Source: Tubiluchus corallicola (Eukaryota; Animalia; Priapulida). From it: a stretch of DNA of 64,000 nucleotides. Where the stretch lies: the NCBI GenBank assembly GCA_030141605.1, contig JAQGDQ010000346.1, forward strand, positions 188,157-252,156, written 5' to 3'. The translations under genes and the position numbers were made by a program. Below, in pieces: positions 4,436 through 62,495 of the stretch (position 1 is its first letter; each line of letters starts with the position of its first letter). The notes beneath the pieces are model-generated. The model was not told where the DNA came from. It worked only from the letters and a program-made list of their open reading frames with translations, and made no database searches.

Positions 4436-5744
4436 GAAAAAAAATATAAAAAAATTATTGCATAATTATAATCCTGTACGAGAAATTTCTGTGTGACATG
4501 ACAAAAGAGCACCACAGAAAAATTACAAAAATGCAAGCGTGCGTGTCATAATTCAGATCAATGGATGACGTTGTTTCCTAAGGCAGTGTGTAGTTTAGTA
4601 AATCTATTCATGTTCTTTCTTTCGTTTATTAATTTATTTAATTTATTAATTCATTTCATTTATTGTAAGGAAACGTGTCATTATAGAAAACAACCATGAA
4701 AAAGTATAGTTTGAGTGCAATACAAAGAAACAAAAATATTGTAGGGCTATATTTGGGCTAATGATTAAACTAACGTTAAATTAATAAAATGTAATGCTGG
4801 CAAGGCAATACAGTGGATCTCCAAGGCCTTTATCTACAGCAGATTCAAACTCTGACCTGTAGTAGTAAAAACCACGAATCACGTGCACACCTGAATTTGT
4901 TAAAACGGAAGGTCTAATGTAGATTGTTGCCAGTGGTCAATGACGTTCTCTGCAGTGTTTTCCTTGGCCAGCGCTGTTGGCCTGGGTTTGCCGGAACGGT
5001 TCGATTGAGTCGTCTCTCCTATGGTCGACATTTCGGTACCTTGATTATGTAATGTGCTTAATAATAAATCGATAATTCAATTCGCTTATTAGATTTCATA
5101 ATTTTTTAGCTTAAAGGTTTGCTTAGCTTAAGCGTAAACATATGCAATGCAACACAACTTCCTTTTGGGCCGCAACGCCATCCTCCCTACGTCCGTTGTA
5201 GACGGATGTCATAGTTGGGCAATCCAATACAATGCAACATTAAATTACAAATTGATGTTCTAAAAACATGCAAACTCAATAAATTTCAGAATATTTATTA
5301 GAAAAATCACATGAAAGTTAAAATCTTATTTTTTAAAATATAAAATAGCACTAATATTAACTAAAATAGTTTTTTTACTTGATTTATGTTAGTAAGTAAG
5401 AAACACTTAAATAAAAAATAAAGAAACATACGCATAAATTAGCTTGAAATTTATTAAAAATAATAATCAAAACTAACCATTAAACCTAAGCCCTATTAGC
5501 ATGAAAGCTTGAACACTTTTTAGCTCTTGATTAGCCTGTAGAAAACTTTTTAAATCACATACTTTGAATTAATTATAAGTGATATTGTACAAGAAACTGT
5601 TCGTTCCCTTTTACTGTTAGCAATGGTGTTAGGGAGGGTGGCATTCTATCGCCTTATTTCTTTAATGATGACCCGAATGTTAAACTGCTTCGTGTAGTGT
5701 GGGTTGTGCCACTGACACAACCTTTATTAATCATCAGCGAACGA

Positions 5745-6045
5745 AATTCGAAGCATTCCAGTTCAAGTACCTGAGGATGCACACTCCGGATTAGATGGCA
5801 GGAACAGGTCACTAATCAGGAAGTGGCAAACAGGGCACAAATAAATGCACTCAGTGATGAACCTAGAAGTAGGAGCTTGATTTGGATTGGACATGTCCTA
5901 CGGGGGGGGATTCTAGAATGACTGTGAGACGGCGATGGAGTGGACACAGGAAGGAAGAAGGGCGAGATCAGCGTGGAGAAAACCAGTGGAGGCAGAAAGG
6001 AGTTATGCAACATGATGGAACTGGAGCGAGGTCAAAATAGTGCCA
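5745..6045 (+). mobile_element. RTE-clade LINE 3-prime ORF relic
   Basis: Frameshifted translation EAFQFKYLR..IRWQEQVTNQEVANRA..LIWIGHVLR..TAMEWTQEGRR..AWRKPVEAE, typical of the RTE C-terminus. Confidence 0.8.
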
Positions 6046-6175: not shown

Positions 6176-6375
6176 CCACAAATGATCTCTCATATTATTC
6201 TTTTCGCAAACGAAAACACAAATAAACGTAAATACAAAATAGTGTAATGTACAAATAGAAAAAGAATGCAGCCTAAAAACAATAAAATTATATTTTTTCA
6301 AACTTTTAGCAAGTTTCCTTATTTACGAACCTTTCTATCAAATCTGGGTCGTACCAGAAAATGGATACGGGAGAC

Positions 6376-6772
6376 ACGAGCAACATGAAGCTTGTGTGTG
6401 AACAACATGAAGCTTGTGTATGAGCAACATGAAGCTTGTGCTTACGAGAAGCATACATATGAACAATATGAATCTTTTGTGCTTATAAGAACCTTATGCA
6501 TGAAGAATATGAATTTTTATGTTTACAGGAAGTTTACACATGACAATCTGAAGCTTATGTGCTTACAGGAAACCTATGTACGTTCAATATGAAGCGTTTA
6601 CACTTGCAAGAAGCTTGTATATCATCAATATGACGCTTGCGCGTTTACAAGAAAGTTTTGCAAGAACAATATGAAGCTTGTACGCTTACAGATAGCTAAT
6701 ATGTAAACAATAATGTGTGAATCTTGTGTGATTACAGGAGGCTTGTGTATGAGCAATATGAAGCTTGTGTGC
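6376..6772. repeat. Degenerate minisatellite, ~21-22 bp unit (caayatgaagcttgtgt...)
   Basis: gaagcttgtg core recurs throughout, alternating with ttacaggaa-type half units. Confidence 0.8.
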
Positions 6773-6978
6773 AAAAAGCAGATTTAGTAATACTTGACAT
6801 GACACACTTCAATAAACCTGATTGGTATCTAAAAAGCATATATTTAGGGTTATCAAACAAAATCACTTAAATTGATAAACAGGGCTCGATCTGAGCAAGA
6901 GTGGTTGTACAATAAAGAAATTAATTTAAAATTAGCCCTAGCAAAAGCTTGCCTACACCGAAATGCAAATGTTTGGAT

Positions 6979-7140
6979 CTAAGAATCCTGAGGTGTCTCT
7001 CCCAGGGCCACATGCACGTTAGGAACATTGCTTTCCTGTACAGCATCGAACTCGCCAGTGTCGCCAGTTAGTCTTATAACGTTTTCATTTTGGGTTTCAA
7101 CGGCTAGTAACTTCGGATTGTTTTCACTAGTTAAAGGTAG
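6979..7140 (-). pseudogene. Out-of-frame remnant of the gene B distal tail (PLTSENNPKLLAVE...TGDTGEFDAVQES..PNVHVALGETPQDS*)
   Basis: Open reading frame homologous to the gene A C-terminus, ending at the same GAT TCT TAG; disconnected by a net 14-nt deletion relative to gene A near 7137-7146. Confidence 0.8.
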
Positions 7141-7337
7141 CGTTCGATTTTGTATCTAACTCCTTTGAAACGTACGTCTCAGTACTTTCATCAGCATTTG
7201 CTCTCCTGTGCTCATTATCATTGTAAGCCAGTTCTTCAAAGACTGGTGGAAGACCAGGAAGATTCCTTTCTGGGACTTCCGAAGAGTAAATAACAGTTCC
7301 ACCGTTAGTGTTTATGATTACGTTTCGCCGAGATCTT
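7127..7337 (-). CDS. Gene B terminal exon (cytoplasmic tail RSRRNVII...LPPVFEELAY...ELDTKSNATFN*)
   Basis: Acceptor ttattag| in phase 2, matching the TM exon; 29/63 aa identical to the gene A tail up to the frameshift. Missed by the ORF track. Confidence 0.85.
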
Positions 7338-10068
7338 CTAATAACAGCATAACAAATCGTTAATGTTGATTTTAATACAGTAATAGCATTAAAGCAATTT
7401 TACGTAGCTGTAACCAATATTAAAAGTATGAAGGCACGTATAACATAAATAACTAGCGCAAGAAATCTCTGTGAAACTTAGTGTAATTGCGAAAGTCGAT
7501 AAAGTATGAGAATACAGCAAAATGATAAGCGTAATGATAATTTGTGCCATTATTTTGTTTAACAATACTACGCAACGCATGTCGTACAATAAAACGATAT
7601 TTTGCCTGTTAATTGCAATTGAGATGCTCTGGTTTGAACGCAGCCATTACAAAAGTATATGATTTGGGTACGATCATTTTGGGCACCAGACACTTGGGCA
7701 CTGGAACACTTGGGCACGAGACATTTGCGCACCAACAAAATTTAAATCACATAATCTTTTTATTTTTGTTTTTAACTTTTTAATGACTGACTATAATTTC
7801 CTAACTCTCTCAATGTTTTTTTAAGAATCGTCGTTTCACTAAATTAAACAGATGCAATGCAATGTCAAATGACTTTGCACTTTCTGGTTTTCAGTATTTT
7901 TGTGTCTAGCTTTTAAAACGAACAAAGCAGAAGAAGACACCGCAAGTTTACATTAGCATTTTATTAAAATAGAATTGGAATTAGAATAATTAATAAAATT
8001 AGAAACCGACCTAGAATGCGTTGTTTAGTTTTTTAGTTGCTTATTCTGCCTGTCAACTTGAAAACGACGTTAATTAGTAAGCTAATGCTTATCAATTTCA
8101 AGACCAACAATAATTGTTGCTGGATCCCATGCGAAATGCATGATAATATTATGCGTTCGGCAAGAGTGTTTTTAGACACTTGCACGCGTTAGATAATACT
8201 ATACATGTAGTTGTTGACAGTTTTACATGATCGTTATCACGAAAATAATTATTTCTTTTCATACCAAAAGATTGTTTAAAAGAAGAAGATTACCATGTTT
8301 TAAAAGCAGCATGGTTATCGGGCAGTGGACGACGATTCCAAGAATAATTTTAGTATGTTAGGCAGCGCGATTTGCTGCGCAAAACAGAAATAATATACAC
8401 TTTCGTGATGCAGGCACATTGGTCATAATTTGTGCGTTGGCGCCTAAATGTCTCCTGCCCAAGTATCTGGCACCCAAACGGCCGTGCCCAATTTCCTCGC
8501 GTCCAAACTGCAGCGCCTAGATGTCCTGTCCCCCCCCCCCACATATAAGTCTATCGCGTCAACTTACACTTTTACACAATAGCAGACGGTTCCTGTAGTT
8601 AATATAGCAACAACGATGACTACACCCATAACAACGATGATTACAACAGCAACGGTAGAACCAGTTTGTTTCTCGGTTACACAGACGCTTGTCGTAGTAT
8701 CTTCTATGCTTGTAGCTTTGAATTAAATCGAAATCAAGATTATATTTTAAATCATTTACATGGGAACTACAGAACCCCCTGAAGTGACAATTTAAAAAAA
8801 ATTAAATTGTTTTGCGATATGCCGCAAAATTATTGTGACATCTTGCAAAACTGTATTACCGTCATGGCACTCGTTTAACCAGAAATGGGATACGCTGGCG
8901 CGAGAACAAAGTAGTCCAGAAAGATTGCCACAGAGCCTTAGGAGCCCGTAACTTTAACCAAAATTTGAACAACGGTATTTTAGCAAACCGGAAACTAAGC
9001 AAAACAAAAGAAATTGTGAGCATGCCTATTATTAAAAGATATTATAGCTGTTAATTGTTACAGAAATTAGAAAAGTTCTGACAAAGACCAAATAGTTTAC
9101 TAAATGATCCTATGGCGCACAAGTTACAGTGCGATTTCTCTTACAGTTGCATAGCGGAACTGTCTAGGGAGCGCACTGGCGAGGTACAAGAAGAAAAGCG
9201 TGTGTGGGTAATGTAAGTTAAGGGTAATGATTATTTAGTTGGTCAGTTCATTAATCAATCGGTCGGTCGTTTGGTTGGTTATCTGGTATATGGTTGAACT
9301 ATTGACTTATAACTGTTGATCATTTTGTTAGTTTCATTGTCTTTTTAGATAGTTGGTTGCCTAATTAGTTAACCAGCTGGTTTGTCACTCGGTTAGTCTG
9401 GTTGATCAGCAGTAAGTTAGTTTTCTAGTCGGTTTTGGATTTTCGTTTACTAAGTTGACCTGTTGGTCCACTAGTCGACTATTGAATAAACCGGCTAATT
9501 TCTAATTTACTACGTATAACAAAATTATCTTCACCTGTAGTTATTCGTTCACATGAAAAAGTTGGTGTAACTGTGGAGCCTCTGACGTTCAACCCCCAGT
9601 GGTCAGTATGATAACTAGCCAGACGTACTGTCACAACTCGACCCCGTTGTTCTACAAATTTCGCATTCCAAAAGTCGTCAAGATTTTTCTTATCTACATA
9701 AGACTTGCTATCTCCAAGAGTGAACGTTTCCAGCGAATTCGAAACCCAAGAACTTTGCCAAATGGTTATCGAGCACCCAGCAGCAAAAGCATTGTCCCAG
9801 CACTGAGTAACGTTAACGGTACATTTACCATAGCAGTTCGACGTAAAGCATGCTAAAGTCAGTATAACCACTGAAATTGTATGTCGCCTGCCCAACAATT
9901 TGTAGACAAGATACATAATTCTACATTTAGCAAGTTAAAACGTGTTGTGTCCTCCCTTGAAGTGAGTTAAGGTCTAGGTTGCTCATGCTTTTTCACAATG
10001 ATAAGAAACCAATGAAAAATACTTTCATGAACACTTAGGATTTGGATCTAAGGAACTTACTCAGTCAT
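7127..10068 (-). CDS. Gene B: type I membrane protein, signal peptide - CBM2-like domain - stalk - TM - truncated tail lacking motif tyrosines (~239 aa)
   Basis: join(10061..10068, 9535..9887, 8568..8715, 7127..7337) on minus strand = 720 nt; GT-AG introns with phases 2,1,2; paralogous to gene A exon by exon. Confidence 0.8.
7666..8533. mobile_element. MITE with inverted arrays of subterminal repeats in gene B intron 3
   Basis: Left end has (acayttgggcac)x4; right end has the reverse-complement units (gcgcctaaatgtc, gcccaagtatc, gcacccaaacgg, gcgcctagatgtcc). Confidence 0.7.
8568..8715 (-). CDS. Gene B stalk + transmembrane exon (ATSIEDTTTS...TVAVVIIVVMGVVIVVAILTTGTVCYCVKV)
   Basis: ttcaaag| acceptor and |gtaagt donor, phases 1 to 2; long hydrophobic run; paralogue of 14252-14417. 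Confidence 0.9.
9535..9887 (-). CDS. Gene B signal peptide + CBM2-like exon
   Basis: Within ORF 9479-9916; donor ACAG|gtgaag phase 1; acceptor either gggcag| (9887) or atgtag| (9920), both in frame. Confidence 0.88.
10061..10068 (-). CDS. Gene B putative first coding exon (ATG ACT GA)
   Basis: Donor |gtaagt in phase 2 joins exon 2 to give MTERHTISVVILTLACFTSNCYG; ~95 nt downstream of the conserved promoter motif. Confidence 0.6.
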
Positions 10069-10076
10069 GTTCTACC

Positions 10077-10219
10077 TTCGGTGGAGTTTCTAGAATTGGT
10101 TAGAGTGGAATGGATCACACAAGTTGCCATTATTGGAGTAATGTTTGTGTAGTAAGCCAGCTGACATCACTTCCGGCGTCTACATTTGTTCATTCTATTT
10201 AGTAAAGCCTTTTACATGA
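10077..10219 (-). promoter_or_regulatory. Gene B promoter block with ETS-CRE-like motif CCGGAAGTGATGTCA (10162-10176)
   Basis: Aligns with 18550-18672 upstream of gene A. Confidence 0.65.
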
Positions 10220-10376
10220 CAAACGTATAGTTCAAAGCAATTACGATTTTTATTTCGGTATTGGGATGACCCGCATACATCGTAATTAATCCAAAACAAA
10301 CGATAGAATCCATTTAACAGTCTTTTCGCGGGTTTTTCTTTATAACATAAATGGTAAATGTATGATTCTTGATGAC

Positions 10377-10470
10377 GGGAATAGCTTAGTGTCGCAGTGT
10401 ATGCTTAGCGACCAAAATGAAGCAAGTCTGAGACTGGTCTGTGAAAGTATGGGTGGTCGTTAAGCTCAGT
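10377..10470 (+). mobile_element. tRNA/5S-derived SINE head
   Basis: gtatgcttagcgaccaaaatgaagcaa is nearly identical to the reverse complement of 58414-58440; followed by box C-like gtatgggtggtcg. Confidence 0.6.
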
Positions 10471-11340
10471 ACTTACTCTGGACGATTTCTTTTATCATAC
10501 TGATTCAGTTTTACCACACTAATTCTGGCCATAACTATCGCAAAATAAGTGAAACTCTTTTCAGAGCACTTAAATGCCCTTTTCTTATTAAATGGATGAT
10601 AATTAAGTCTGCTGTTGCCTAGTTGGGTAAAAAGGCAGGTTGGTAAATGTGGAACAGGCCAATCGTGAGACTGCCATATACCCCACATGGCTGTCTTTCA
10701 CTTTTATAGTGTCCATTTACCAGTTGCGTTTTCTGTTGAGGTTTTATGGAACTAATTTTCACTCTCACAATTGGCGTGAAAAAACAATCTCTCTGAGTTT
10801 AAAAATTCATAATAGCAGGGGAAAATATCAAAAAAAATAGTACAAATATCCCACTTTTGTTGTGCAGTTGAAACGTTATATCAACAAGCATACAAAATTC
10901 TTTTTATTGTTGTGTATCTATGCCGAACTATCTTTTCTTTTCAGAAAAGTTAATTTAACGTCTATTGCGCGAACGTACAATACTTCATGCTTTGTAGTAC
11001 ATTTTTAATTGCAAAGCAGATTTCCTGAGACACTTATATAATAGTTTTGAAATCAGAGATAAAAAGGAGATTTGAAAAATTTCTTCTGCCTGCAGGGAAA
11101 AAAAGAGCATGATTACGCGTGGTTAAAATTGCGTTGACGTTCGTCGTTGCTGCTGCTTCTGTTGTTGCTAATGTTGTAGCTGTTGTTGATACTGTAGCTG
11201 TTATTGATGTTGTAATTTTTGTTGCACTACTGACTTAATTTACTCAAGAATTCAACGAATCAACAAAAATTTAATAAATAGTATTAAAACACAATTCTGA
11301 TGTCAATTATAACAGCCATTCTTTTGTTTTTGCTGAAATA

Positions 11341-11490
11341 TAAAGAGTCCATAAGTCTCCTTCCAATTGCTGTACACACGTTAGGCCGATTACATCCTGA
11401 AGGTCAACATCGTATTTACCGGAATCGTCAGATGATGTTTTTCTTTTGACCAACCATTTTTTGGTTGTCAACAGCTAAAGAATTTGGACT
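11341..11490 (-). pseudogene. Decayed third copy of the receptor terminal exon
   Basis: Frameshifted translation PNSLAVDNQK / SDDSGKYDV / RPNVCTAIGRRLMDS versus gene A PKSLVVEPQK / TGDSGEYDV / GPNVYTALGEKPHDS. Confidence 0.75.
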
Positions 11491-12812
11491 ATAAATCACG
11501 TATCAAAAGCACCTTAGCGGCCATATCAACCTTTTTCACGTACTTCAGTGCATTTGTTGCAGTTCGTCAATGTCAGTATTGTCACAAAATCAAGTTTCGA
11601 AAAGACCGTAATTATTGTAAGCTAGTAGTGGGTTAAGAAAATCTCGTCTCGAACCATAAAAGTTAAAGATATGAAAAAGCTCTGCTGAGATTTGCCATTT
11701 TAACATAAGGAATCGTTGAATGCCCTAGTAGTTTCAAAATAATTATTTTTATTTCTTACAGAAGCTTTCACCCTAGCGGGTTTTATCAGCTGAATGTATT
11801 GTGCGGCTAACTTGATAGTATTCTTAGGTTAGCCGTAGAGTCCTATGCAGCTGACAATACAAGGGCTTTCAACGTTTTCTTCCATAGAAGCTTAAACCAA
11901 ACAGCTTGACTTTCCACAATTAGTATCATAGTATGGCTCCCATTTTGCCGTAGTTTCCCATTAACAAAATGGACACTTAATGCTGATTTTGTCAGAATAA
12001 AAAAAATACAATGTTAACCAATTTCGCGAGTATACTTAATATACAAGGATCAGTAATGCATAGATGACACACCCTACCAACGAAAACTTAATGATCTTCA
12101 GATGCTTAACGACGATGAAGATACAATAAAAAATACTAAATTTATTTATTTATTCATATTTTACACTCAAAATTAGGATAAAAACAAAAAATCAGAGAAG
12201 CCATGTACAAATTTGCAGACGCACAATAAAAATTAGCAGTGATCAAACATAATAAATATATTACAGACATGTATTTGTTATAAAAATGCCATAAACAAAT
12301 AGCAAGTTGTTACTAATATTAAAATGACATTCGTGTATTGTATAATTAACAGTCTTTTAAAATCCGATTACCCATAATCGGATCTTGGAAGAAGCGTGAT
12401 CTTTTTTAAACTTTACGCAGATCAGAAGTTCACACAAGCAATGATACGAATTAATTATTCACCATATTTAATGGGAAACACACCAGCATCACTTCTACAC
12501 TTCATAAAATAAGTGACCTTCGCTGCCCTTGAAAACCTATTTTCTAGGTATTTTAAATCCATGTTCAACATCAATATAAGTCAACAATTACATAATTTTA
12601 TACAGCCTAAAAGCAGTGCTTCTGAACTGACAGGAAGCATTTTTGTAGCAAACAATGCTTTCAGATTAGTACTTTTGTTGCTGACCTCAATTATTACTTT
12701 CATAAACGAAAAAGACAAAAAATATATATACAAAAATAGTACAGTGTACAATTAAAAAATTATGAAATCAATATTTTTTCAAAATAGAGCTTTTCCACAA
12801 CAATATTTTGAG

Positions 12813-13188
12813 CTAAGAATCATGGGGTTTCTCTCCCAAGGCCGTGTACACATTCGGACCACTACTTTCCTGTACAACGTCGTACTCACCAGAATCACCA
12901 GTTAGCGTCCTTTTAAGGTTTTCCTTTTGGGGCTCAACGACCAGTGACTTTGGAATGTGTTCACTAGATAAAGGTGGCGCTGACGCTACCACATCGGGTT
13001 TTCTGTCTAATTCTATTGGCACGTTAGCGTCAGTGTTTTTACCACCATTTTGTGTCACGTGTTTATATTCACTGTAGGCCAACTCTTCATAGACTGGAGG
13101 CGGCTCAGGAAGATCCCTTTCTTGAATTGTTGAGGAGTAAGTAACCGTTCCGCTTTCAGCGTGCATGATTGCACTTCGGCGAGGTTTT
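12813..13188 (-). CDS. Gene A terminal exon, cytoplasmic tail (PPVYEEL, SEYKHV, EYDVV-x8-YTAL)
   Basis: Within ORF 12813-13238; acceptor gttaatag| in phase 2; basic stop-transfer KPRR. Confidence 0.9.
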
Positions 13189-16100
13189 CTATTAACAACA
13201 AAGCAGTTAAAATTGATTTGAAGCAGTAATAACGTCAAGGCTACTTAACTAAGGCCAAATAATTAAGGTTTATTCGCATGACCAATATCAGAAGCATTAC
13301 GGCATGGATAACACTGATAACCAACGCAAAAATCTTTGTAATAAAAATGCATGGGTATCATTTTGCCAACAAAGGCTGATTTAAACAGCAAAAGGCTAAG
13401 TGATATAAATGTAAAACTGGTAAAATTATAGCAATGAATTAATAGAAAAGCTTTGAAACGTCTAAAATAGTATCATTATTTTGTTTATCAATTGTCACAA
13501 ACCCAAGTGGCATCCATAAGAGAAACCATCATTTGGATTTTTATTGATACACTCCACGTGATCGAAGATTTTTGAAAAGTTCAAAAAAATAGACTACATA
13601 AATTACCTTATACCCAATAAATTATAGCCGATGATGTAAAAATAAAGTTAATAATTTGAATATAATAACTTCTATTGATATCCAGAATTACACTGTAATT
13701 TAGAAAGCTGTGAAACAGTTAAAAATCAAGATAATGATTGCACCTTGGAATTTTTCACATTGAATGGAAATCTGCAAAGCAAATGCGTTTGCCCTAAAAT
13801 AATTTTAATTCAATTTTATTCCTATTTTTATTCGAACTCGTTCGTAAATTAACTTTTACTTTAGTGTATTTTGTTTAGAAGTGAAAAAAACCAAAGGAGC
13901 AAAACGACTTGTGTACTTCATAGCACATTTTTTTTTTGTCTTTTATAGCTTCAACTCATCTTTGTGAGTTTGTTTTGGTTCAGTAGTAGAATTCTTGTCA
14001 TTCGTATTGTCTGAACACTTAAGTCTTACCATTCACAAATTCCGTTACATTTCAGCAAATAAAAGTTCTTTTAAAAACACTATCCAACATTGATTCAACA
14101 AAAAAAATTCGGTTTAATGAAACGTTCTCGTGTAATTGAAATGCTCTTTTGTAAATGTAGCGATTACAAGTGTTTTATATCTGTAAACGTTGCCTTACAG
14201 GTATATTGCGTTTTGCAATCGTGGCATTGCAAGTATATTATGTAAACTTACACTTTCACACAGTAGTAGACGATCCCAATTGTCAATATGGCAATAACAA
14301 TGACAACACCCACAACAACAATGATTACAATGGCGATGGTAGTGATCGGTGCAGCAGATTGTGTATCGGTCACAGTTTCAACATACACATGTGTCGTAGT
14401 ATCTTCTTCGCTAAATGCTTTGAAAAAAATCGAGAATTATATTTTAAATCAATTGAATAAGAAGGCACTGCTCTACTGTAGCAGTCTACGTTACAATATT
14501 ATAATAATCAGTTGTCTTCAATGTCAATTAGTTTATTCCAATTAATAACCTCAGATTTATTTATTCTATTCAGGTGACTGTTCGGTAAGACCTACTATCA
14601 TTTGTTTTCTGAAAGCCTTAAACGAGCATAAAAATATCCCCAATAGAAACGGTTTCTTCTTGGAAGAATTTTACAGAAGAATTTGTAATTTGAAAACAGC
14701 GAAACAGATGAATGGCTTTTTAATTTGAAAACAGTGAAACAGGTAAATGGCCACTGGTTGGTGCACTTGAAGTTAAGCAATAGCAAATCTTCTCACTAAG
14801 TAAATGGTTGACCTTCTGGAGAAGCAGTCTGAGCGGCTTCATCTGCCATGGTTACCCGGTCATTTAAATTATGAAAAAACACATAAATGTGGTCAACATA
14901 CACTTGCCTTTTTACTGCTTCATCTTTGATTATTATCTTTAATGAGTTACATTCTGACATTATTGTATGTCTTGCAGTTAAAACGTGGATTACCGGCTTG
15001 CATTGCCGAATTGGATAAAAAAGTCGCTCTGACAGTTCCATCTCGTCGAAGGGCAAAATACCTATTTCGTGCTAATAGAACCACTCCGACAGAAACAAAA
15101 TGAACTATTTTAACAACAACTAAAAATCTTATTTGACACAAGCAATTACATGCACACCTGCACAAAAATCTTCGCACTTCTGCTTGGTGGGAAACTGATT
15201 ATAAATCCCTGGACACCTGCCAAAACCGAACGGAATACATTCCTTGTTTTTCGGATCAAAATGCCAAGCAGTTGGGCTAGACACGAAACAGCTATTATCA
15301 GGTAAAGGTTCCTTGCAAACGCTTTTACCTGTAAAACATAAAGACATATTCGCCATCTCAGTTTTAATTTTTTTAAAATTTAAAACTGACTGATGAGTTT
15401 TTTTTTGTTTTTTTTTATAGGGTAAGACATAAGATTTATCCTGACATTTTCTGTGGTCGGTAACCTTCTCCGCAGTTACTGACATTTCCATATAAGGTGA
15501 AAGTTAAAGTAGAATATTTATTAGTACGTATCACTGACGTCTTGATAAAATTTCTAACCTAGATGGAGCCACTATAAGATCGGATATTCTAATACTGCTA
15601 CTGCTGTAATTACTCACCTACACACGCTTGGTAACACTCTGCTTCGTTATCAAAATGTAACGTTCTCTCAGGACACAAGTCATTATCGGGTACATATTCG
15701 ACGCACTTTTTCTTGTCAATGTTGAAGTAGTAATATGAATCCTGGTAAGCCGACTGCTGATATGGCTGTTCATTGACAGAAGGCAAGCCATATTGGTGAA
15801 TGGGAGATTTTCCAGTAGGTACGTAATATCCTCCCTTCCCAGAAGGCACAGCAGGCACGCCAAACACCGAATCTTTCACTCCCTCGTAACCAGATTGGCT
15901 GGTGTCACTTCCACTTTTAGTGCAGTGAGATGGTAATGGAGGATCAAAGCAACTATCTTTAAAATAAAAAAATTAGATTTTAACATAGACGAATGGCAAT
16001 AATGCTAGATTAGGAAGAAAGCTCTTAAATTATAGATAAGTTTCCTGTAAAAATAAACCAACAGTCTCATATATTTGCACGAAAAAATTGATTACATTGT

Positions 16101-18344
16101 ATGTGAGTGTGTGAGCAAGGGAATATGTATGAGATTGAAAGTGTGAAAGTGTGTGCAGACATAACCGTTACCTGCCTTGCATGTCTGTGTTTTTTATTTT
16201 TTTAATCTTGAGATTCGGCAATTCTTGACTTTCGTATGCCGATCCCACGTTGATAGCATCAAAAATTCTGAAAATTATGCATATATTATTCTTATCAATC
16301 ACTTTGATCCATTTTCTCATTTTTGTGTTTTCATCACCATTTTTTCTTTTTTTAAATTATCTTTTATTGTATTCATTCATGCCATTTATTAAGTTAACAC
16401 TGCACAAGTTTTCTTATAGTGTTGACTTGATGTCATGCGCTATTGATTTATAAGCTAAGTATGTTACATGTTGTTCTGTATGTACATGTACACATTGACA
16501 TTGTATATAAAAAAATCTAATCTAATCTACTGACATAAATAACAGCCATTCTCCTCTTTGACTCGCTGATTGGTCGGTCGATAGGTTCGTTGGTAGATTT
16601 GTTAATTTCCACTAGCAGCTAGTTAGTTGGTTTATTGATTCGTTGAATATTTGGGTGGTGGTTGGTCTGTTAGCTCATCATTGTGGGCTGCTTAGTTAAT
16701 TAATTGTTTGTTTGATTGCCTAACTGGATAGTTGGTTGTTTTGTTAGTTGATAGTTTTCTAGTCAGCAATTGATTTTTCGGTTACTAAGTTGACCGGTTG
16801 GTCTACTGGTCGACTAATGAACAAGTGAACAAACCAGATAATTTTTAAATTTCTATAAACAAGAAAAATAAGCTTTACCTTTAGTTATTTTGTTAGGCTC
16901 CTGTTTACATGAAAAAGTTGGTGTGACTGTGGAGCCTCTGACGTTCAATCCCCAGTGGTCAGTTTGATAGCTAGCCAGACGTACTGTCACAACTCGACCC
17001 CGTTGTTCTACAAACTCCGCATTCCAAAAGTCGTCGGTAACGTTCACATCTACATACGACTTGCTGTCTCCAAGAGTGAACGTTTGCAACGATTTCGAAA
17101 CCCAAGAACTTTGCCAAATGGTTATCGAGCACCCAGCAGTAAAAGGATTGTCCCAGCATTCGGTAACGTCAACGGTACATTTGCCATAACAGTTCGACGT
17201 GAAAAATGCTACGGTCATTATGAGTGATGAAATTGAATGTCCTTTACTGAACATTTTCTAAACAAAATAATATAATTACATTCAACATGCTATTTAAAAT
17301 GTATTACTTGAAAAAAGTTTAGGCTCTCGCAGTGACCAAAAAGAAGCTTCTTGTTTTTGCCCCCTAAGATATGAGCTTAGGGCTTTCGAATTGTTTGCAA
17401 ACACTACTAATTTAAACTTCATATTAATTCTACGAAAGCAGAATAAAACAAAACAAATTATATAACAGATTATATTTTTTATTCTCTATTCCTGTCAGAA
17501 AATTACTATCCAAATGAATTCGTTGAATTCTTTTACCATTATAAAAAACACTTCTTAATCAATTATCTCAATAATACTATCTTGTACATCAGTATTGTAA
17601 TTCATTAAATAAGATGCTGGGTTTAATCATTATTTGCGTGTGCCAGTTACTATCTATTAATCACGGATCATCCATTCATTCTTCTCAAAATTTTTGAACA
17701 AGTTCATAAAATAATTTTGAGGTTTTAAAAAGTAGTAACATTTGATTTTGCAAAAGGCCAAAGTTTGTTAACATGACAACATGACGATAGTTAATTGTTA
17801 TTCTGTAAACGTACTAAAATGTACTACATGTAAACTGGGTCAGCACTGTATCGAGGATAGCCTACAATAACGGCTGCTACTACAGTATTATAAAAAAAAG
17901 TCACCAACGTATCTTACTTTGTGTGGTTACAAATGTGTGGTTACAAATGTGTATGTACAACGTGGATACACTAAAGCATTACAAGAAACTTATCAACATT
18001 GCTTGATCAAGCAAGGAAACTTTCAATGCTACTGAAAATAACTTACTGCTACTACAGAAGCTGTAAATCCCATGTACCCAACTATGTTATGGAGTAAATA
18101 TACAAAAGTAACAAACGTACATATACAGTACACTACAGCATACAAGAAGCTCACCAACTTAGCTTTATCAAGCAGAGAAACTTGGGAGAGCAACTAAATT
18201 TTGTCCTACTAATAGTTTCCTGCTTGACAAAATAGTTGTAAAACCCAAGTACCAAGTTGTGGAGTCAACAGACAAAAGTAAAAATGTACATTTACACTGT
18301 GCTAAAATATACAAGAAGCTTACCAACTTAGCTTGATAGTTCAT
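12813..18344 (-). CDS. Gene A: type I membrane receptor, signal peptide - CBM2-like - Kunitz (with insertion) - Kunitz - stalk - TM - tyrosine-motif tail (~483 aa)
   Basis: join(18324..18344, 16879..17257, 15618..15956, 15158..15328, 14252..14417, 12813..13188) on minus strand = 1452 nt, no internal stop; GT-AG introns with phases 0,1,1,1,2. Confidence 0.85.
14252..14417 (-). CDS. Gene A stalk + transmembrane exon (AFSEEDTTTH...ITTIAIVIIVVVGVVIVIAILTIGIVYYCVKV)
   Basis: tttttttcaaag| acceptor and |gtaagt donor, phases 1 to 2. Missed by the ORF track. Confidence 0.9.
15158..15328 (-). CDS. Gene A Kunitz/BPTI domain exon 2 (canonical, P1 = Phe)
   Basis: C-x8-C-x16-C-x7-C-x12-C-x3-C with WHFD and NQF motifs; 171-nt phase 1-1 exon; ttttacag| acceptor and weak GCAG|gtgtgc donor. 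Confidence 0.9.
15618..15956 (-). CDS. Gene A Kunitz-like domain exon 1 with a long insertion after the second Cys
   Basis: CFDPPLPSHC-(72 aa)-CVEYVPDNDLCPERTLHFDNEAECYQAC, six Cys; 339-nt phase 1-1 exon; ttttaaag| acceptor and GTAG|gtgagt donor. Confidence 0.88.
16879..17257 (-). CDS. Gene A signal peptide + CBM2-like exon
   Basis: Matches ORF 16853-17254; tttgtttag| acceptor and AAAG|gtaaag donor; motifs CTV..WDNPFTA, TFTL, WNA, QRGRVVTVRLASY, WGLN align by eye with CBM2a. Confidence 0.9.
17975..18340. repeat. ~165-bp degenerate tandem repeat (about 2.3 copies) containing the gene A exon-1 donor
   Basis: acaagaa(a/g)ct(t/c)a(t/c)caac..gctt(g/t)at at 17981, 18142 and 18311; intervening blocks also align (tggagt.aa.a.acaaaagtaa.aa..gtacat). 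Confidence 0.75.
18324..18344 (-). CDS. Gene A putative first coding exon (MNYQAKL)
   Basis: TTG|gtaagc donor in phase 0 joins exon 2 in frame; the ATG at 17254 is an alternative start. Confidence 0.55.
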
Positions 18345-18549
18345 TCAGGTACGGTCTGATTATGCAGATCAGCATTAATCAATAACAATTACGCACAGTA
18401 AAGCAATTCTTGAGTATCTTGAATCGTCGTCGTTCTAACCGGATTTCACTGTGTTTTTCACCAAATCTCGTGTGTTAACATACAGTAAACAGCAATAAAA
18501 CTGTGCCTGCAAACACCTCTGGCAAATTCTTGTCACGTCACGCTTTTGC

Positions 18550-18672
18550 TTCGGTTGAGTTCCTAGAATGGATCAGTGAACTGTCGTCATTGCAGACATG
18601 GCTTAGTAAGCTGGCTGACGTCACTTCCGGACTCTACATTTCGCCATTCTGTCTAGTAAACCCTTTTGTATG
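18550..18672 (-). promoter_or_regulatory. Gene A promoter block with perfect overlapping ETS-CRE motif CCGGAAGTGACGTCA (18616-18630)
   Basis: Exact composite motif; block conserved with 10077-10219. Confidence 0.7.
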
Positions 18673-19146
18673 ATATTATTAAAATTTTAGCTTTCAAGTA
18701 TGTTAAACTATATTTAGGATCTTACTATCACAGGAAGAGATACTGCGTGAATACAATTCCGTTTCCTGTCTGTCCCATTTCAAAAGAAAGATGTAGGCTA
18801 CATAGTAGAGACCGTACTTCGTTCCAATGCAAATGCATTTCCTTATAGCGCGGGTGACAAATGTGTAAAATCCTTGATGATGATAATAGTCGAGTTGTCA
18901 TGGTGCTAACGCTCGTAATTCCAACAATCTCATGACATTTATTTCCGAGCATTTCTGGGGCTGAGCAATGAACGAATAGATGGCCGCTAGGTTCAATACT
19001 CGTTTTGAAAAATTTCATTCACTCGCTAATTCTGGCTATTTACATCTTCAAATTTGTAAATAAAGGATCTCTGATGGATCAGTGTCTCATCTTAGAACCT
19101 CATTATCATTACTGTTATCATAATCATAACTGCAATTACTATTTAA

Positions 19147-19691
19147 AGGAAAACCGGACGACTGATTAGAACCAATCTCATTTTAATTTACAGTCCAAAA
19201 TATACATTTTTGCCTATAAAAGTTTGTAATTGTTTCTTATATTTGAATAATTAACTTGGAAATTTAATTAACTACAACCGAACACAGCTATCGATTATGT
19301 CACAAACTAACCACAATTTGTGCAATGGTAGGCATCTTTCCTGCGCGTCAAGCACTTTTGCGTAAGCGAAGATTGCTATAAGATTCTGATGTGATGTCAC
19401 GTAAAAGTGCTGTACGTCACAGACGAACATTGCAGTTCATGATCATGCTTATCACGCTACCGCTACTATTTGTCGGCCACGCGGATGTGACATAAAGACG
19501 CCATTGCCAGTCTTAGTAGATTCACTGAGCGACCTGAGCCGCGCCTAGCTTTGGCAGTTTAACAAAATTTAACTATCCGAGGTAATTATTATTTAAACTA
19601 CGCTTTGATTAAAAAAAAGCTATTGGAGTTTTCAATATTTTAGAGCATACTTTATTTTGAAGTAATGTTTACACAATCGCCCGGTTTTCCT
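19147..19691. mobile_element. Kolobok-type MITE
   Basis: TIRs aggaaaaccggacgactg / caatcgcccggttttcct, flanked by TTAA on both sides. Confidence 0.85.
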
Positions 19692-40474: not shown

Positions 40475-41429
40475 TAGAATAAATCCTCGTCGTTGCTGAA
40501 CCCATCACTATCATTGTCAATGTCACCACCATTGTTGAATATATGCTTATTATTTGCAGACATTACTTGACAATTATTTTACTATTGCAAAATTTAAATT
40601 TTTGTATAATAGACTACCCGAATTTTCAGATAAGTGGAACCCTAAAGACGTTTTTTCATTAAAGTTGGCAACACGGTCAATCTTGCTAGCAGAAATGAAC
40701 AATTTTTCACCATTCTGCTACACTATATGTCGGGGACCAAGCGGCCATTTTGTTTTTTGCTTGTTGGACTATTTTGAATTTTTAAATCTTTTTTGTGGTC
40801 TAGCAGTTTTTATATTCAATAATGTCAAACTGATAGAAATAATTTATTTTTTGTTTTTATAGTAAATCTTTAGATGAAACTGCTGATATAACTGCGTGAT
40901 CGACACAATTTCGTTTTGTGTAGCGGCGATTTTGAAAACGCATTTTTTAAAATGAACGTAACAGAAATAAGTCCATTTGCTTAAGTCCAACTACCCTGGA
41001 TTAGATGTCATAATCGCTTCTTAATATAAATTTACTAGGAATTTTTTTTATATAATTTATGCAAAAACTCTGACAGTCGTTTTGTTTTTTGCGTTTTTGA
41101 CTCTTTCCGATAATTTTTCAAGCTGACAACAGACTTTTGAATTCAGCACGGTCAAAATGATAAGTTGCGCCTTTTACAGAAGCACTCTTCAGGATTTTCT
41201 TCCAGACAGGGTCATTAATTCTATTGTTTATTCAGTTCGCCTCACTCCAAGGAGAAATTCAGTATTCACTAGCACAGCATAATATATTTTTGACCACTGT
41301 GGCGGGACCGACAGATATCTCTTTTTATCGAGAATTTTAAATAGCTGCAAAATTTTGGCTCACAATAATCATATCAGAAAAGATGATGTTTAGCATTGGA
41401 AATCTTGAATCCCTGGTGTCTTATCTTAA

Positions 41430-42166
41430 AGGAAGAACCAACCCTCAAACAACATTTATTGCATTTTAATATGCAATTTAAAATATTGAAATCACCACAC
41501 AACATACGCGCATAGAATGCTTTGCTTAAAAATGCAAGCGAAATTTAAATATTTTTTTCTCCCGCCAAACGAACGTCTCTCCGGCATATTTGAAAAAATG
41601 ACGTAAGCTGGTGTCTGCTGGGCAGCGTGAATGCTGTGAAGGCAAGCTGTGATAAAGGTACGCGTTGCAAAATTTCAACAATTCACTCAGAAGTTCCGTT
41701 ATTCCAGCGTTGTGTTTAACTGTGTTTAGGTAAAAATTAGTCATTGGATCAACTATGACCAAGTTTAAAGTGGTTACATAGTTTTAATCCACAGGATTAC
41801 CTAAAAATGTGTAAGTATAGTGTACATTAATTGTGCAAATGTGATTAATTTACGGACGTTTGTTGACTTTCAGATACGCATGTAAACTTGCGAGCATATA
41901 GTAGGTACGGGGTAGAGTAACTCGCTCTATAGGCCAAAAAAGATTGCTGAAAGACCTGGCGGGATAAGTGTTTATTTTACATGGAAACCGGATGATGCCA
42001 TTTTTCGTCTAAAATGAGCGCGTCCAAGCGTTAAGCGTCCACTGCGACTTTAAATTGATTTTAATAATTACATAAGACGCTTATCACAATTTTATTGCTG
42101 AAACGTTCTAACATTTTTCTCAAATATTAGAATAAGCTTAGCTTCCCGATAAACTTGGTTTTTGCT
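41430..42166. mobile_element. Kolobok-type MITE, family copy 1
   Basis: TTAA|aggaagaaccaa ... ttggtttttgct|TTAA; colinear over its full length with 61735-62495. Confidence 0.88.
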
Positions 42167-45100
42167 TTAAGCTGAACGTAGCAGCTCACCATATTTGACA
42201 TTAGAGGAGACAAAGTAACAGTCTAAATCAAATTGCTGGAACCCTCACTGCAATGTATAGGTGTTTCACTTGTTATTCGCAAAACTTTTACTAGTATTTA
42301 TTACATCAGTAACAATATTAATAAATAAAAACAACAACACTTTATCACACATAAGATGGGATGTCAACTATTAAGACAGATGAAACATTATAAACTCTTC
42401 CATAAACTAAACTGGTGCTCTTTAACAGACTAAGCGGAAGAATACAAAAATGAGAAACAGAAAGCAAATTAAAGTGGCACAATGAGCAAAAAACTTCCAT
42501 CAATTTAATGGCTATTCAAGGTTACTATAGCCAACAGTGGCCAAAGAGTTAAACACATTCGTAATGGGCATTCGTGAATCATCGGAAAAACTATAGAATT
42601 ACAGAGTACCCCAGGGAGAAACCCTGCATGCCTCTCTCTCCTCTCCATTCTCTCTCTGTCTCAGCCGAAGATATGAGCGGTGCACACCAAGCTAATTAAA
42701 AGTAGAATTTCCATTAGAGGCTTCAAATATACAGCAAGAATATGTGCAGATGTTATTCCACTAAGAAGTTTAAGTGCAACGCGCAGGAGGATTCATAATC
42801 GAAGAAGAAGAATACGAAGGTAATTCTCTTGCCTCCTCTGGTGTAGAGACAGCGGTAACGCATCGGACGAAATGTGGTTAGAAGATTGATGTAATCATTA
42901 CAACAACATCTTCGTGCTTATTTAATGGATGGGATTAAGTCTTGTAATTAGGAATGCATCTTAGAAATGTAAAATGTTAAAGAAAATTATGCCTGGTTTG
43001 ACATTCACAAAGTAAAAGTAAACCAGCAGGTTAAAAAATAACAAACTTTAAAAACAATAAAGCATTAAAAACAAAACGCAAAAAATAACAAAGAATGTTA
43101 CGTGTTGAGTTTCAGCAAAACAGGAAGGTGCGTAACTGATCGGCCTTACTTCCACAAAACTGTTTTGGCACCATGAGGGGGATGAAGGGCGCCCGTGACG
43201 GCTAGTGCAAAGAAACTCTCGGCGTGTTAACCTTTGAGAGCTTATAAAGAAGCCTGCGTAACCTTTCAGAAGGATAATAACATGTAAGATGCAAAGTCGT
43301 GCAAACATGTACACAGAGAGCAGGACTGTAAAATGAATCTCTGTGTTTTTTGTCTGGCAGCTGACACTCAACAAACTGGTACCGTGAACAGAAGTCACAA
43401 AAGTCATTAGCCACTCCTGGAAAATGGCTGCTAGATGTGTTTTTCTTTGCTTTGCTGAAACTTGGTTTCCTAATCTAAACAATAAGCTAGTATTGCCTTT
43501 TCAAACCTCTTGACATGCTTGGCTTCGCAATTTCTAGGTCAGTGATTTCTTTGCGGTAAAATCCCGCTCACAAAACTTCGCAAGCCAATGAAAAAATGCC
43601 AAAAATTTCCCAGTGAAAATCTTCGAATACACTAATTAATTAATCCTAGGTAAGGTGTGTTACTGTGCAGCAATGCACACCTGAAACGCTATAAGCCCAT
43701 TGCTTTAGCATGTATGAGGTTTAAGACAAAGAGGTCCTCAACTGGGTTAGGAGCTTGTTTGGTTAAAACGTAACATCGGTACAAAACACCCTACTCCTTT
43801 GCTCTGAGTGGAGTTTTGCGCAAAAGGTACAAAGTTGCCATCCAAATGGCGCAAACCAAACCTTCATAATCAGGTCAGTACGCAACACGATTAACCATTT
43901 TTTCCTGTAATTTCAGAAATAAACATTCTTTTGCTCTCTATCCACCCATCCATCCGTTTGATGCCTTATCCTTTTATATCAGGACATGCAGCAATATGTT
44001 TTTATACTGCTAGGCTCAAACTATGCATGAGGCATTGCATTAATATAATTCTAATTTGAAGATTAAAATAGTTATTAACACGTAATAAGAAACTTCACTC
44101 TTCTTACTTACTTGCTTAATTGCTAGTGGGACTGCATGTATATGGCGCTACTTATGTCGCAACATTGATGTGAAAATTTTCGTAAATGGATAAGTTTTTA
44201 CGTACAGGCAACATTAAAAGCGACAATTTTATTATTATACGTAAAGCTCGCTGCTTAAATTCTCTCACACTAAAATGACTGCCGTATGTTGCAATCAAAA
44301 CGTCTGAATATGATGCTTTTAAGTATTTACATTTTTAATAACAAACTTCTTTAATAACAAAATAACCAAAGCGAGTTCATAAATTGAATTGGTTTATAAG
44401 TAACTTCATGAATGAAACTGTATGCCGAGGTATATAACTTTGCTCATTGTGCTCATCTTAAGCTCTCGACAACTAATAAAAAAACTTTTATGATCACAAA
44501 CTTTAACATCTACTACTAACCACTTAGATGAATCAAGCATGTGGCAAGAGAAGGATAATTTGGGCTGAAAGAACTAGAGCCCACATGTGCAATGCAGTAA
44601 CAACAGTCAGTCCGCTTTACTTCACCTTCTTTGGCGTGGGTTCTTAAATCTTAGTAACAGTGAAGATATCAAATCCAATTCATGGCGATATAGGTGTAAA
44701 GCTAATCCAGGTTTAATATAACTAAACACGAAATACTTCATTCTAGCAAAATTATCAAAATAGAAAAGCCAAAATTGGTTTACGAAGAGCAAATGAAGCC
44801 GTTTAACTAGGCTGCACAGGTAGCACATGCGTTAGTAAAAATGTAATGAACCAAACTATGATTCTTTGTGAAAAAAACTTGTCGGTTTATGTAGAATTTC
44901 CATCACGCAAAAAAGAAACAAAAGACTGCTATCTGCATAAAGAAATTCGTGAAAAAAGCAATAAATTTTACTAGATTGTGGTTATAAAATGCTTGCACAG
45001 TGCTATATTCAACAAGAAACAAGCTAGCAGCATTATTCCAAAAACAACGGTTCTACGAAAGACGCCATCTCTAGCTAGCAAAAGAGAAAACCCTTTACCG

Positions 45101-46719: not shown

Positions 46720-48610
46720 CTCAAAACGCTTTTTCAACATACTCAATAAACGCCTTAATTAATTCAAAATCACTGCTTCCCATCAAGAAAAAAATATTAG
46801 CATCGCTTTGCCTCATAAGGAAAAATTCTGGTATTACTGCGTTGATGTGATTACATAATTTTCTTTTAAGATCATTGTAATATGGACATTTTATAACAAA
46901 GTGTAATTCGTTTTCGATTTCATTTCTTAAACAATACGTGCATAACGATTCTCAGCCAGGATTTTTCTAGGTTTAATGTACCTCCCGCTTTCAATACACA
47001 AAGTATGTGAGCTGATTCTTAATTTTGTAAATTTTGCTATAGCGTATTTGAAATAACCAGAAAGTGAATAGTTTTCTAGTTGATATCGTCTTTTGAAGTA
47101 TGTTCTCAGTTTGTTTTGTCTATTAGGTTTATTATCTCCATTGATTTCTTCTTTCCAAAATAGGATATACTATCAGCTTTTAATTTTCTTCCCATTTATC
47201 AAATAGTCAAAAAAGAAAAAATATTTTCAAACCGTATACACATAACACATACTTAAAGAAAGTAGTCCAAAAAAGCCTCGGTTTTCATCACACGTCTTGT
47301 ACACATTACACAATTATCATAAGGTTGGCTAGTAACATGTATCCAATAGCAAATTGAATTCTTAATTATTTTAGTAAAAATTGAAAAATAGCCTAATCCC
47401 CTCTGCGTTAAACAGACTGCCATATTTAGTTTGAATATGCAGAAAATTTCTTTTCATTTCAATAAGGTTGGGTCCCCATACTTCAGAGCCATATAACATG
47501 ATAGGTTTCACAGTATGTTCGAATAATTTAATAATAGTAACTGGGTTTGCGTAGTTTGAGAGGTGTTTTTTCACAGAGTAAACAGTTTTTAATTCCTTGT
47601 CTTTTAGCTTGATGGAATCCTGAAAGCGCCAGATGCAAAAAGTGGACTCCCAAATATTCATAAGATTGGACTTCTTTCAGCTTGTTGGAATCCTGAATCA
47701 ATAGGTAATTTTTATGTCTTTTAGGATTCTGCCTGCTTTGTTAAATACAATAATTTCTGTCTTTTTGTTATTAACTTCCAGAGCCAGTTAGCTACAGTAA
47801 TTATTCGGCTTAATAAAGCATTGCTGCAATCCCGACTGGGAACAAGAAAGTAAGACCATAACGTCGGTATGAAGAAGACAGTTGGTTTCAAAATTACCTA
47901 GACTAACGAGATCACGTTTATCAAGTGTGAAACCTGATGGCAGGTCACTGATATGAAAGGAGAAGAGAGCCTTAACGTACAACCTAGCTTAACGGAGGAC
48001 GGTGTATCTTCTGTTAATTAACCAGCAAGTTTAATGGAGTAATTAGTTTTAAAGTATTTACATATTTTGCAAAACCTTAACAAAGTAACCACCTATATTA
48101 TTTTTCAATTACTTGTAGTATAAGCCAGTTCGCCAGACGGAATCAAAGGCTTTGTGTAAGTCAACGAAACAACAATAAAGTTTATAATTTTTTCTAAAGA
48201 TTAATTATCAATAAGTGTTTTTAATGTAAACATGTGGTCGTTGGTACGACAGCCTTTCTGAAATCCTATTTGACTTTCCTGAAATATTGCTCTTAGTCAG
48301 AATTTTTCCTAACCTATTATTTAGAATTTCACAAATAATTTGCTTAAACTGCTCGAGATGGCAACTCCTCTGTAATTATTTGGGTCTGTTGCATTTTCGC
48401 TTTGGAATGTCTGGTTAATGTGGCTTTCCTTCCACTGGCTAGGATAGCAAGAACCAGAAGATATCAAATTGAGTCATTTATGAAGTCCATAACTTGGCTT
48501 GATGTTTGAGCATTTCGTTTATTAAGCCGTCTGTACCTGTAGCATTGTTACTTTTTAACTGTTTAATGGCTAACAGGATTTCCGTTTCAGTTATTCTATA
48601 ATCTCATAAA
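46720..48610 (-). mobile_element. Degenerate non-LTR retrotransposon (RTE-X-like) reverse transcriptase and C-terminal region
   Basis: Frameshifted motifs in order: ITETEILLAIKQLK..ATGTDGLINEMLK, DPNNYRGVAI, QIGFQKGCRTNDHMFTL, CFVDLHKAFDSV, CLLHTDVMVLLS (decayed YADD), VKPIMLYGSEVWG, LRISSHTLCIESGRY, IENELHFVIKCPYY. Confidence 0.92.
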
Positions 48611-61598: not shown

Positions 61599-61734
61599 AT
61601 CTGTACTTATAATTTTATTATATAAATAAAAGGTTTTGAATGAATGAATGGATAATTCAATATGCGTTATTAATTGGCCTTATCGAAATGTTCCGACAAA
61701 CCTGTATTTTAGATAGTTTACTAAAATTACTTAA

Positions 61735-62495
61735 AGAAAGAACCAACCCTTGAACAACATTTTTTGCATTTTAATGTACAATTAAAAATGTTGAAATTAC
61801 ATTACAAAATATGCGCAATGAATGCTTTGATTAAAAATGTAACAGAAATTTAAATATTTCTTATCTCCCGCCAAACTAGCGTTGATGCGGGCATATTTCA
61901 AAAAATGACGTAAGGTGTTGTATGCTGAGCAGCGTGAATGCTGTGAAGGCAAACTGTGTGAATGTATGCGTTGCAAAATTTCTATAGTTTCCTTAGAAGT
62001 TCCGTTATTCTAATGTTGTGTTTGACTTTATTTATCTAGAAATTAGTCATTCGATATATTATGATCAAATTGTAAGTGGTTACATTGCTTTAATCTACAC
62101 TACAGGATTACACCTTAAAGTTATTACTCACATGTGTAAGTAATTAACATTAATTGTGTAAATAATTAATTTACAGATTTTTTGACTTTTAGATGCGCAT
62201 GTAAACTTGCCAACACGTAATAGGTGCCAGGATGGTTATTTAGTTTAGGGAGTTCGCTGTACAAGTTAAAAAAGATCACTGAAGCACTTGGCAGAGTAAG
62301 TGTTTATAATGCACGGAAGCCCGACGGCGCCATTTTTCGTTTAAAACGAGCGCTCCCAAGCGTGAATTGACCAGGACTTTAAATTGATTTTACTAATTAC
62401 ACGAGATCCTTATCACAATTTTATTGCTAAAGCTTTCTAACATTTTTCCCAACTATTAAAGTAGGCTCAACTTCCTGAGATACTTGGCTTTTGCT
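61735..62495. mobile_element. Kolobok-type MITE, family copy 2
   Basis: TTAA|agaaagaaccaa ... ttggcttttgct|TTAA; colinear with 41430-42166. Confidence 0.88.

Follow-up and report, generated by a model that had tools for sequence, protein, structure and literature searches.

Tandem genes of the priapulid Tubiluchus corallicola predicted to join a CBM2-like module of glycanase type to membrane anchors with divergent tails

Gene layout at the locus

The stretch analysed (hereafter the window) comprises 64,000 nucleotides of the priapulid Tubiluchus corallicola (contig JAQGDQ010000346.1, positions 188,157 to 252,156). Within it, two tandem genes, A and B, lie 3 kb apart on the minus strand, together with a decayed third copy, C. 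Both genes are predicted to encode an N-terminal module related to accessory modules of secreted glycanases, followed by a transmembrane (TM) segment and a cytoplasmic tail. The features are as follows.

18566..18673, minus strand: putative promoter block upstream of gene A; the ETS-CRE composite motif occurs in exact form at 18616-18630
16879..17254, minus strand: gene A coding exon 1, signal peptide and CBM2-like module (mature module about 17182-16904)
15618..15956, minus strand: gene A exon 2, Kunitz-like domain with six cysteines and an insertion (from Pfam, Atlas and cysteine spacing)
15158..15328, minus strand: gene A exon 3, complete Kunitz domain (from Pfam, PDB matches and cysteine spacing)
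14252..14417, minus strand: gene A exon 4, Thr-rich stalk and TM helix
12813..13188, minus strand: gene A exon 5, cytoplasmic tail of about 125 aa with a PPxY and four YxxPhi motifs
~11250..11750, minus strand: copy C, a decayed duplicate limited to the tail exon, interrupted by indels and stops; identity to A and B about 51-52%
10108..10219, minus strand: putative promoter block of gene B, with the ETS-CRE motif carrying one change at 10162-10176
9535..9916, minus strand: gene B coding exon 1, signal peptide and CBM2-like module; across 93 codons, identity to A is 86%
8568..8715, minus strand: gene B exon 2, stalk and TM helix without a charged residue
7127..7337, minus strand: in-frame portion of gene B exon 3, encoding about 70 tail residues without YxxPhi or PPxY, up to a stop made by a deletion
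6979..7126, minus strand: sequence that once encoded the distal tail of gene B and is no longer in frame; the old frame is stop-free, and both motif tyrosines were already changed (to F and H)

Gene A had been described as a complete multi-exon gene in an earlier, sequence-only reading of this DNA, and the model stood: its coding sequence of 1428 nt is distributed over five exons and forms a single open frame of 475 aa, as predicted from the DNA, which also holds for every splice junction in both genes. The four introns (922, 289, 740 and 1063 nt) are all of GT-AG type, with phases 1, 1, 1 and 2, and the GC content is 0.41-0.47 in exons and 0.30-0.34 in introns. The product comprises, in order, a hydrophobic N-terminus, a 93-residue module bounded by cysteines, two Kunitz-type exons, a Thr-rich stalk, the TM segment and the tail. 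A single strong TM segment was found per gene (KD19 3.54 in A and 3.37 in B), with a hydrophobic N-terminus in both, and the product of A is predicted to be a single-pass cell-surface protein. An extra small exon in intron 3 of A or intron 1 of B was considered by eye and rejected, as phase-compatible sites were lacking.

Gene B consists of counterparts of exons 1, 4 and 5 of A, joined by phase-consistent GT-AG introns; no Kunitz sequence was found in it, in agreement with the previous description. Its supposed completeness down to position 6979 did not hold. Read through to that point, the coding sequence is 889 nt, which is not a multiple of three. Near 7145, 14 nt present in A are missing from B, and the resulting frameshift creates a stop at 7127-7129 and leaves a product of 246 aa. 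A contig from run X1 covering 6966-7349 showed no gaps and four other letters; this ruled out an assembly error, and since the contig is gap-free there, the same deletion is present in a second haplotype (X1 deriving from the same individual or another). A micro-intron that would rescue the frame was ruled out by eye, as local GT..AG pairs span 13-20 nt. A stop in the last exon normally lets a transcript escape nonsense-mediated decay, so the B transcript would normally do likewise.

Copy C had been taken for a decayed third gene copy, which was borne out for the tail exon only: its local scores were 134 and 145, compared with shuffle maxima of 93.5 and 94.5 (50 shuffles each), and neither a module nor a TM remnant was found beside it. 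Between copy C and the promoter block of B lies a Thr/Ala-rich open frame (11234-11100, minus strand) with possible phase-1 splice sites, which could be the remnant of a stalk exon or a simple repeat; its place departs from the exon order in A and B.

The blocks upstream of A and B (112 nt) are 74% identical, and the only two CCGGAAGTG sites in the 64 kb are those within them. A candidate donor of a non-coding first exon lies at about 10060 in gene B, and no canonical poly(A) signal for B was found within 1.2 kb. The ETS-CRE composite motif was described from human promoters, where the genes concerned serve mRNA processing, catabolism and stress response and are not specifically immune (PMC3464117).

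The N-terminal module

On the evidence of its relatives, the module belongs with accessory modules of glycanases, a family that weakly resembles CBM2. All seven clear profile matches were secreted glycanases or a fragment of one: four proteins of glycoside hydrolase family 7 (GH7) and one GH7-like fragment with two C-terminal copies of the module, and two GH8 proteins with one N-terminal copy, with Thr-rich linkers. The GH8 proteins, P0003 and P0009, are 50% identical over their full length and carry the module directly after the signal peptide, as do A and B; P0009 is Priapulus caudatus XP_014663182, annotated as uncharacterized. Unlike A and B, these relatives are secreted enzymes without TM, Kunitz domain or tail, and KD19 reached at most 1.32 across all 12 stored proteins, with no TM-like segment. 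The modules of the relatives are 29-44% identical to that of the window, and BLAST scores did not separate GH7 from GH8 copies as its source. No Priapulus GH8 cellulase was found in the literature searched, most subscription journals lying outside it.

The family, which is unnamed, was recorded in GH7 sequences P0001, P0002, P0006-P0008, P0010-P0012 and L001 (1552-2118), and in GH8 proteins P0003 and P0009. The contig L001, encoding P0002, was the one true hit among 22 pattern matches in a metagenome scan, and the module was found in none of 51 viral contigs. Word-index protein searches yielded none among 63 candidates with the single module against longer proteins and none among 29 with the profile at near length; a PDB sequence search with the single module gave no matches. 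Two plasmid matches at E 7 were dismissed as noise, and P0004 (E 1.7e-4) was dropped as a relative together with its cluster mate P0005 (FN3-type repeats, 28-29 bits).

The name CBM2-like, given from the sequence at the outset, was retained with a qualification. The window's own module matches no Pfam family in A and gives no CBM_2 match in B, and the label therefore rests on the relatives: Pfam CBM_2 (PF00553) matches these with E-values of 5.5e-5 and 1.1e-3, a score of 19.7 bits being reached where the cut-off is 24, and all 10 best Atlas matches with a family fall in the CBM_2 family or clan (top score 0.89). The module resembles CBM2 domains (C. fimi xylanase D, 1heh, 1e5b and 2xbd; C. fimi 1exg; ScLPMO10C, 6f7e) in its length of about 90 residues, a Cys at both ends, a Trp near the N-terminus, a W-N-A motif, a predicted all-beta fold, and weak matches by sequence, language model and structure. 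It differs from them in lying below the Pfam cut-off, in an extra invariant Cys pair (C9/C18), in Tyr as the third invariant aromatic residue, and in sitting on a membrane anchor, whereas bacterial CBM2 modules sit on enzymes. CBM2 modules have a Cys near each end, forming a terminal disulfide; here, C2 and C92 stand at the module ends in the sequence and would form the corresponding bond. Residues C2, W10, W53, Y72 and C92 are invariant in all five aligned module sequences, and two of them, W10 and W53, line up with tryptophans in 1heh. Y72 may be equivalent to the third Trp of CBM2a, and W10, W53 and Y72 may be exposed like the Trp platform of CBM2; this third Trp is missing in CBM2b (PMC9996879).

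Structure prediction was less informative. The single-sequence model was unusable (predicted local distance difference test score 36.4), Foldseek with a model from a shallow alignment of five sequences returned no match at E<=0.001, and structure comparison of the module model gave tied, low scores. A profile search of the PDB placed Flo11 first and also listed modules of C. fimi xylanase D, at E 0.045-1. The low scores, the rank of Flo11 and the missing Pfam match of the window copy would suit a generic small beta-sandwich engaged in protein-protein adhesion, with glycan binding lost or never present. We consider this quite improbable, as all clear relatives reside on glycoside hydrolases behind a Thr-rich linker, two Trp align with those of CBM2b, and the third aromatic is invariant.

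Divergence of A and B

That both genes carry the same ligand domain was confirmed, and the high identity between them is confined to 17192-16913. Within the module, 10 of 65 synonymous sites differ (0.155), compared with 59 of 139 in the signal peptide, stalk/TM and tail (0.38-0.50; Fisher p 1.2e-4). Selection on the protein would not reduce divergence at synonymous sites, and the pattern is therefore most simply read as the result of gene conversion or a comparable exchange. Close linkage and ligand domains kept alike by gene conversion, both expected of paired receptors, are thus found in A and B, and the genetics of the locus fit a paired-receptor history. Pairwise dN/dS, a value that mixes both lineages, was 0.32 in the signal peptide, 0.45 in the module, 0.37 in the stalk/TM, 0.53 in the proximal tail and 0.33 in the distal tail, with p 0.08 for the module (not significant alone) and p 0.01 for the distal tail that is now out of frame in B.

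The Kunitz domains of gene A

The earlier Kunitz-Kunitz assignment applies to the second domain and in part to the first. The second (exon 15328-15158) scored 42.2 bits with Pfam PF00014 against a cut-off of 21 (E 9.6e-11), has a Cys spacing of 8,16,7,12,3 with Phe after the second Cys, and is matched by 38 PDB sequences at E<=0.001. The first (exon 15956-15618) falls below that cut-off, with 11.4 bits over model positions 16-52 only, and is still Kunitz-like in Atlas clusters (0.83). Its Cys spacing is 8,72,9,12,3, with 72 residues between the second and third Cys compared with 16 in the second domain, and it contains an insertion of about 56 residues after the second Cys that is rich in G, Y, P, Q and S. 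As this insert has an open frame and is GC-rich (0.49), it is probably coding; an unspliced intron was judged unlikely given the same frame and the GC content of 0.30-0.36 in introns. As modelled, the first domain cannot be a standard inhibitor.

Matrix proteins with non-inhibitory Kunitz domains exist, and A and B might be structural tethers that attach cells to a polysaccharide matrix made by the animal itself (a chitinous cuticle, the lining of the gut or a cellulose tunic), with the Kunitz domains binding matrix. A module of polysaccharide-binding type on a TM anchor would agree with this, as would a first Kunitz-like domain without a normal reactive loop and with a G/Y/P-rich insert. A tether is nevertheless improbable, since the short ectodomain offers a single binding module, and neither the motifs of the tail nor the selective way in which B lost them would be explained.

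The cytoplasmic tails

The tail of A contains four YxxPhi motifs (Y384, Y392, Y453 and Y465) and one PPxY; among 5000 shuffles of this tail, four YxxPhi arose in 1.4% and a PPxY in 6%. The last two YxxPhi form the ITAM-like pair YDVV-x8-YTAL; the earlier reading had spoken of an ITAM-like receptor. An immunoreceptor tyrosine-based activation motif (ITAM) reads Yxx[L/I]x6-12Yxx[L/I], and the pair in A departs from this definition (PMC13358205) at one residue. The spacing is ITAM-like; neither a strict ITAM nor an immunoreceptor tyrosine-based switch motif (ITSM) was found in the tail, such a pair arises in 5% of shuffles, and a match of inhibitory type (ITIM-like; one in A) does so in 29%.

Four YxxPhi and one PPxY, with no strict ITAM or ITSM, would also suit an uptake or scavenger receptor of gut cells or phagocytes for polysaccharide particles or protease complexes, with these motifs acting as endocytic and lysosomal sorting signals in place of kinase docking, and B staying at the surface. 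The derivation of the module from digestive-type enzymes points in the same direction, as does the human ETS-CRE motif in not being specific to immune genes (PMC3464117). We regard such a function as rather unlikely, because a homogenised ligand exon with diverged tails is the pattern of paired immune receptors (PMC13358205) and the two distal motifs have ITAM-like spacing.

The tail of B has none of the six kinds of motif tested. It had been read as devoid of the motif tyrosines, and this proved correct: F, N, F and H stand in place of the four YxxPhi tyrosines, the other two aligned tyrosines are both kept, and the chance of this pattern from background change rates is about 0.034. In a three-way alignment, copy C has Tyr codons at two of the motif sites and keeps the sequence across the deletion of B, which makes loss in B the likelier direction, subject to the low identity of copy C (about 52%) and to a second alignment that differs at the first Tyr site. 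The out-of-frame distal tail of B is free of stops, weak evidence given that 25% of neutral simulations likewise stay open, and its dN/dS of 0.33 suggests that the deletion came late. For most of the time since its origin, B probably functioned at full length without the motif tyrosines, the truncation being a late event.

Independently of the function of A, B may be turning into a pseudogene like copy C under relaxed selection, with the likeness of its module a by-product of gene conversion. The frameshift in two haplotypes, a dead tail copy next door, the missing poly(A) signal, replacements in all three listed tail variants, and a non-negligible chance of losing four tyrosines would be expected from decay. 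The signal peptide, module and TM exons of B are, in contrast, intact with conserved splice sites, its promoter block is retained, and dN/dS is below 1 in every segment (as a pairwise value of both lineages), so that decay of B appears possible but doubtful.

Proposed function

With slightly less than even confidence, we propose that A binds a beta-1,4-glycan, clusters and signals through its tyrosines, and that B binds the same ligand without signalling and thereby competes or buffers. The aromatic face of the module in A would bind an insoluble beta-1,4-glycan of cellulose, chitin or xylan type, and this polymeric ligand would cluster the receptor. The YxxPhi tyrosines would then be phosphorylated and dock SH2 proteins, and the PPxY could recruit a WW-domain ubiquitin ligase that turns the receptor over. 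The intact Kunitz domain may bind a chymotrypsin-like protease, with the split Kunitz-like domain serving as spacer or cleavable loop. B, with the same binding module and its motif tyrosines lost, would act as a non-signalling competitor. The fuller version, in which a glycanase module became part of a receptor that recognises cellulose, chitin or xylan as a pattern, senses proteases through a double Kunitz stalk, has an ITAM-like tail and is tuned by a conversion-matched tyrosine-less paralogue, is put forward as a whole with considerable doubt.

Several of the results above weigh against this proposal: the window module without a Pfam family or Foldseek match, the non-standard first Kunitz-like domain, the frequency of the ITAM-like pair in shuffled tails and the lack of a strict motif, and the frameshift in B. 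To these are added the TM helix of B, in which no charged residue for an activating adaptor was found, the lack of an inhibitory and an activating motif divided between A and B, and the restriction of the evidence to one locus in one species at the sequence level.

Relation to known receptor systems

Paired receptors comprise one inhibitory and one activating member (PMC13358205). A and B share with paired immune receptors the linked genes, an ectodomain of glycan-binding type kept alike by gene conversion and the divergent tails, and differ from the usual arrangement, in which an ITIM receptor stands beside an activating partner with an ITAM adaptor and the ectodomains are of immunoglobulin (Ig) or C-type lectin fold. 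In B, both the motifs and a charged TM residue are missing, and two Kunitz exons present in A set the ectodomains apart. The likeness noted in the sequence-only reading thus extends to the homogenised module and diverged tails and not to a pair of opposing signals; because the TM segment of B has no charged residue for an activating adaptor, A and B are not a classic activating/inhibitory pair.

A further parallel is the Fester family with the fester coreceptors (FF/FcoR) of the invertebrate Botryllus schlosseri, type I receptor gene pairs in which one member carries YxxI/L/V cores, ITIMs or hemITAMs and the other has no tyrosine motif (PMC12582321). These are, in contrast, allorecognition receptors of the immunoglobulin superfamily in large families, and neither a glycanase module nor a Kunitz domain is mentioned in the available text (PMC12582321). 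The motif-less member there is a co-expressed partner and not a decoy (PMC12582321), and by analogy B may be a co-expressed partner of A, as a further option.

An outer polysaccharide-binding module, one TM helix and an inner signalling part also occur in Dectin-1 and in bacterial RsgI-type CBM sensors. Dectin-1, a C-type lectin of type II, recognises beta-1,3-glucan and RsgI proteins are bacterial anti-sigma factors; their folds or organisms are unrelated to those of A and B. That no receptor of the layout of A has been described was corroborated: profile and word-index searches of proteins brought up none that joins the module to a Kunitz domain or TM segment, which is weak evidence, as shared words were mostly needed and multi-exon eukaryotic genes are probably under-represented, and neither a CBM2-Kunitz-TM receptor nor a metazoan CBM2 immune receptor was found in the literature searched. 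We read the locus as a new architecture of a known kind, namely a putative glycan-binding tyrosine-motif receptor with a silent paralogue.

Surroundings of the locus in the window

A mir-153 precursor lies at 20803-20734 on the minus strand (Rfam RF00650, 58.2 bits against a gathering score of 54; hairpin z -9.3), 2 kb upstream of the promoter block of A and on the same strand. The precursor identifies the DNA as animal; the family mir-153 is bilaterian, and in vertebrates it sits in introns of PTPRN/IA-2. A motif scan of the window for a host exon of protein tyrosine phosphatase type (PTPRN/IA-2) gave nothing convincing, and no conserved position of mir-153 in an IA-2 intron of invertebrates was found in the literature searched. 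None of 111 other open reading frames of the window (selected from 477 with a minimum length of 45 aa, a few longer frames being added) had a Pfam match at E<=0.01.

Several repeats were observed. A 293-nt perfect inverted repeat (62793-63085 and 63708-64000) reaches the window end and possibly represents the ends of a young DNA transposon. Two repeat copies of about 750 nt (41425-42170 and 61730-62499) are 77% identical. Broken frames at 46721-48506 (minus strand) and 5583-5918 (plus strand) resemble, by eye, reverse-transcriptase remnants of long interspersed nuclear elements, with no Pfam match at E<=0.01. Degenerate local tandem duplications lie downstream of B (6374-6780) and upstream of the first coding exon of A (17866-18337), and 19079-19500 is a very high-copy repeat by contig depth in run X1. 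Run X2 matched repeats alone and is uninformative on expression.

Significance

Ig and C-type lectin folds predominate among the paired and pattern-recognition receptors described so far (PMC13358205). If the proposed reading is true, the locus would represent a paired-receptor system on a fold used for it by neither vertebrates nor tunicates, as far as known. It offers a small and tractable system, consisting of a 93-residue module, three aromatic residues and two tails, and the analysis defines a module family that GH7 enzymes have in common with GH8 enzymes of animals. If a glycanase binding module does form the outer part of a membrane protein here, this would show animals turning part of a digestive enzyme into a sensor of beta-1,4-glycans.

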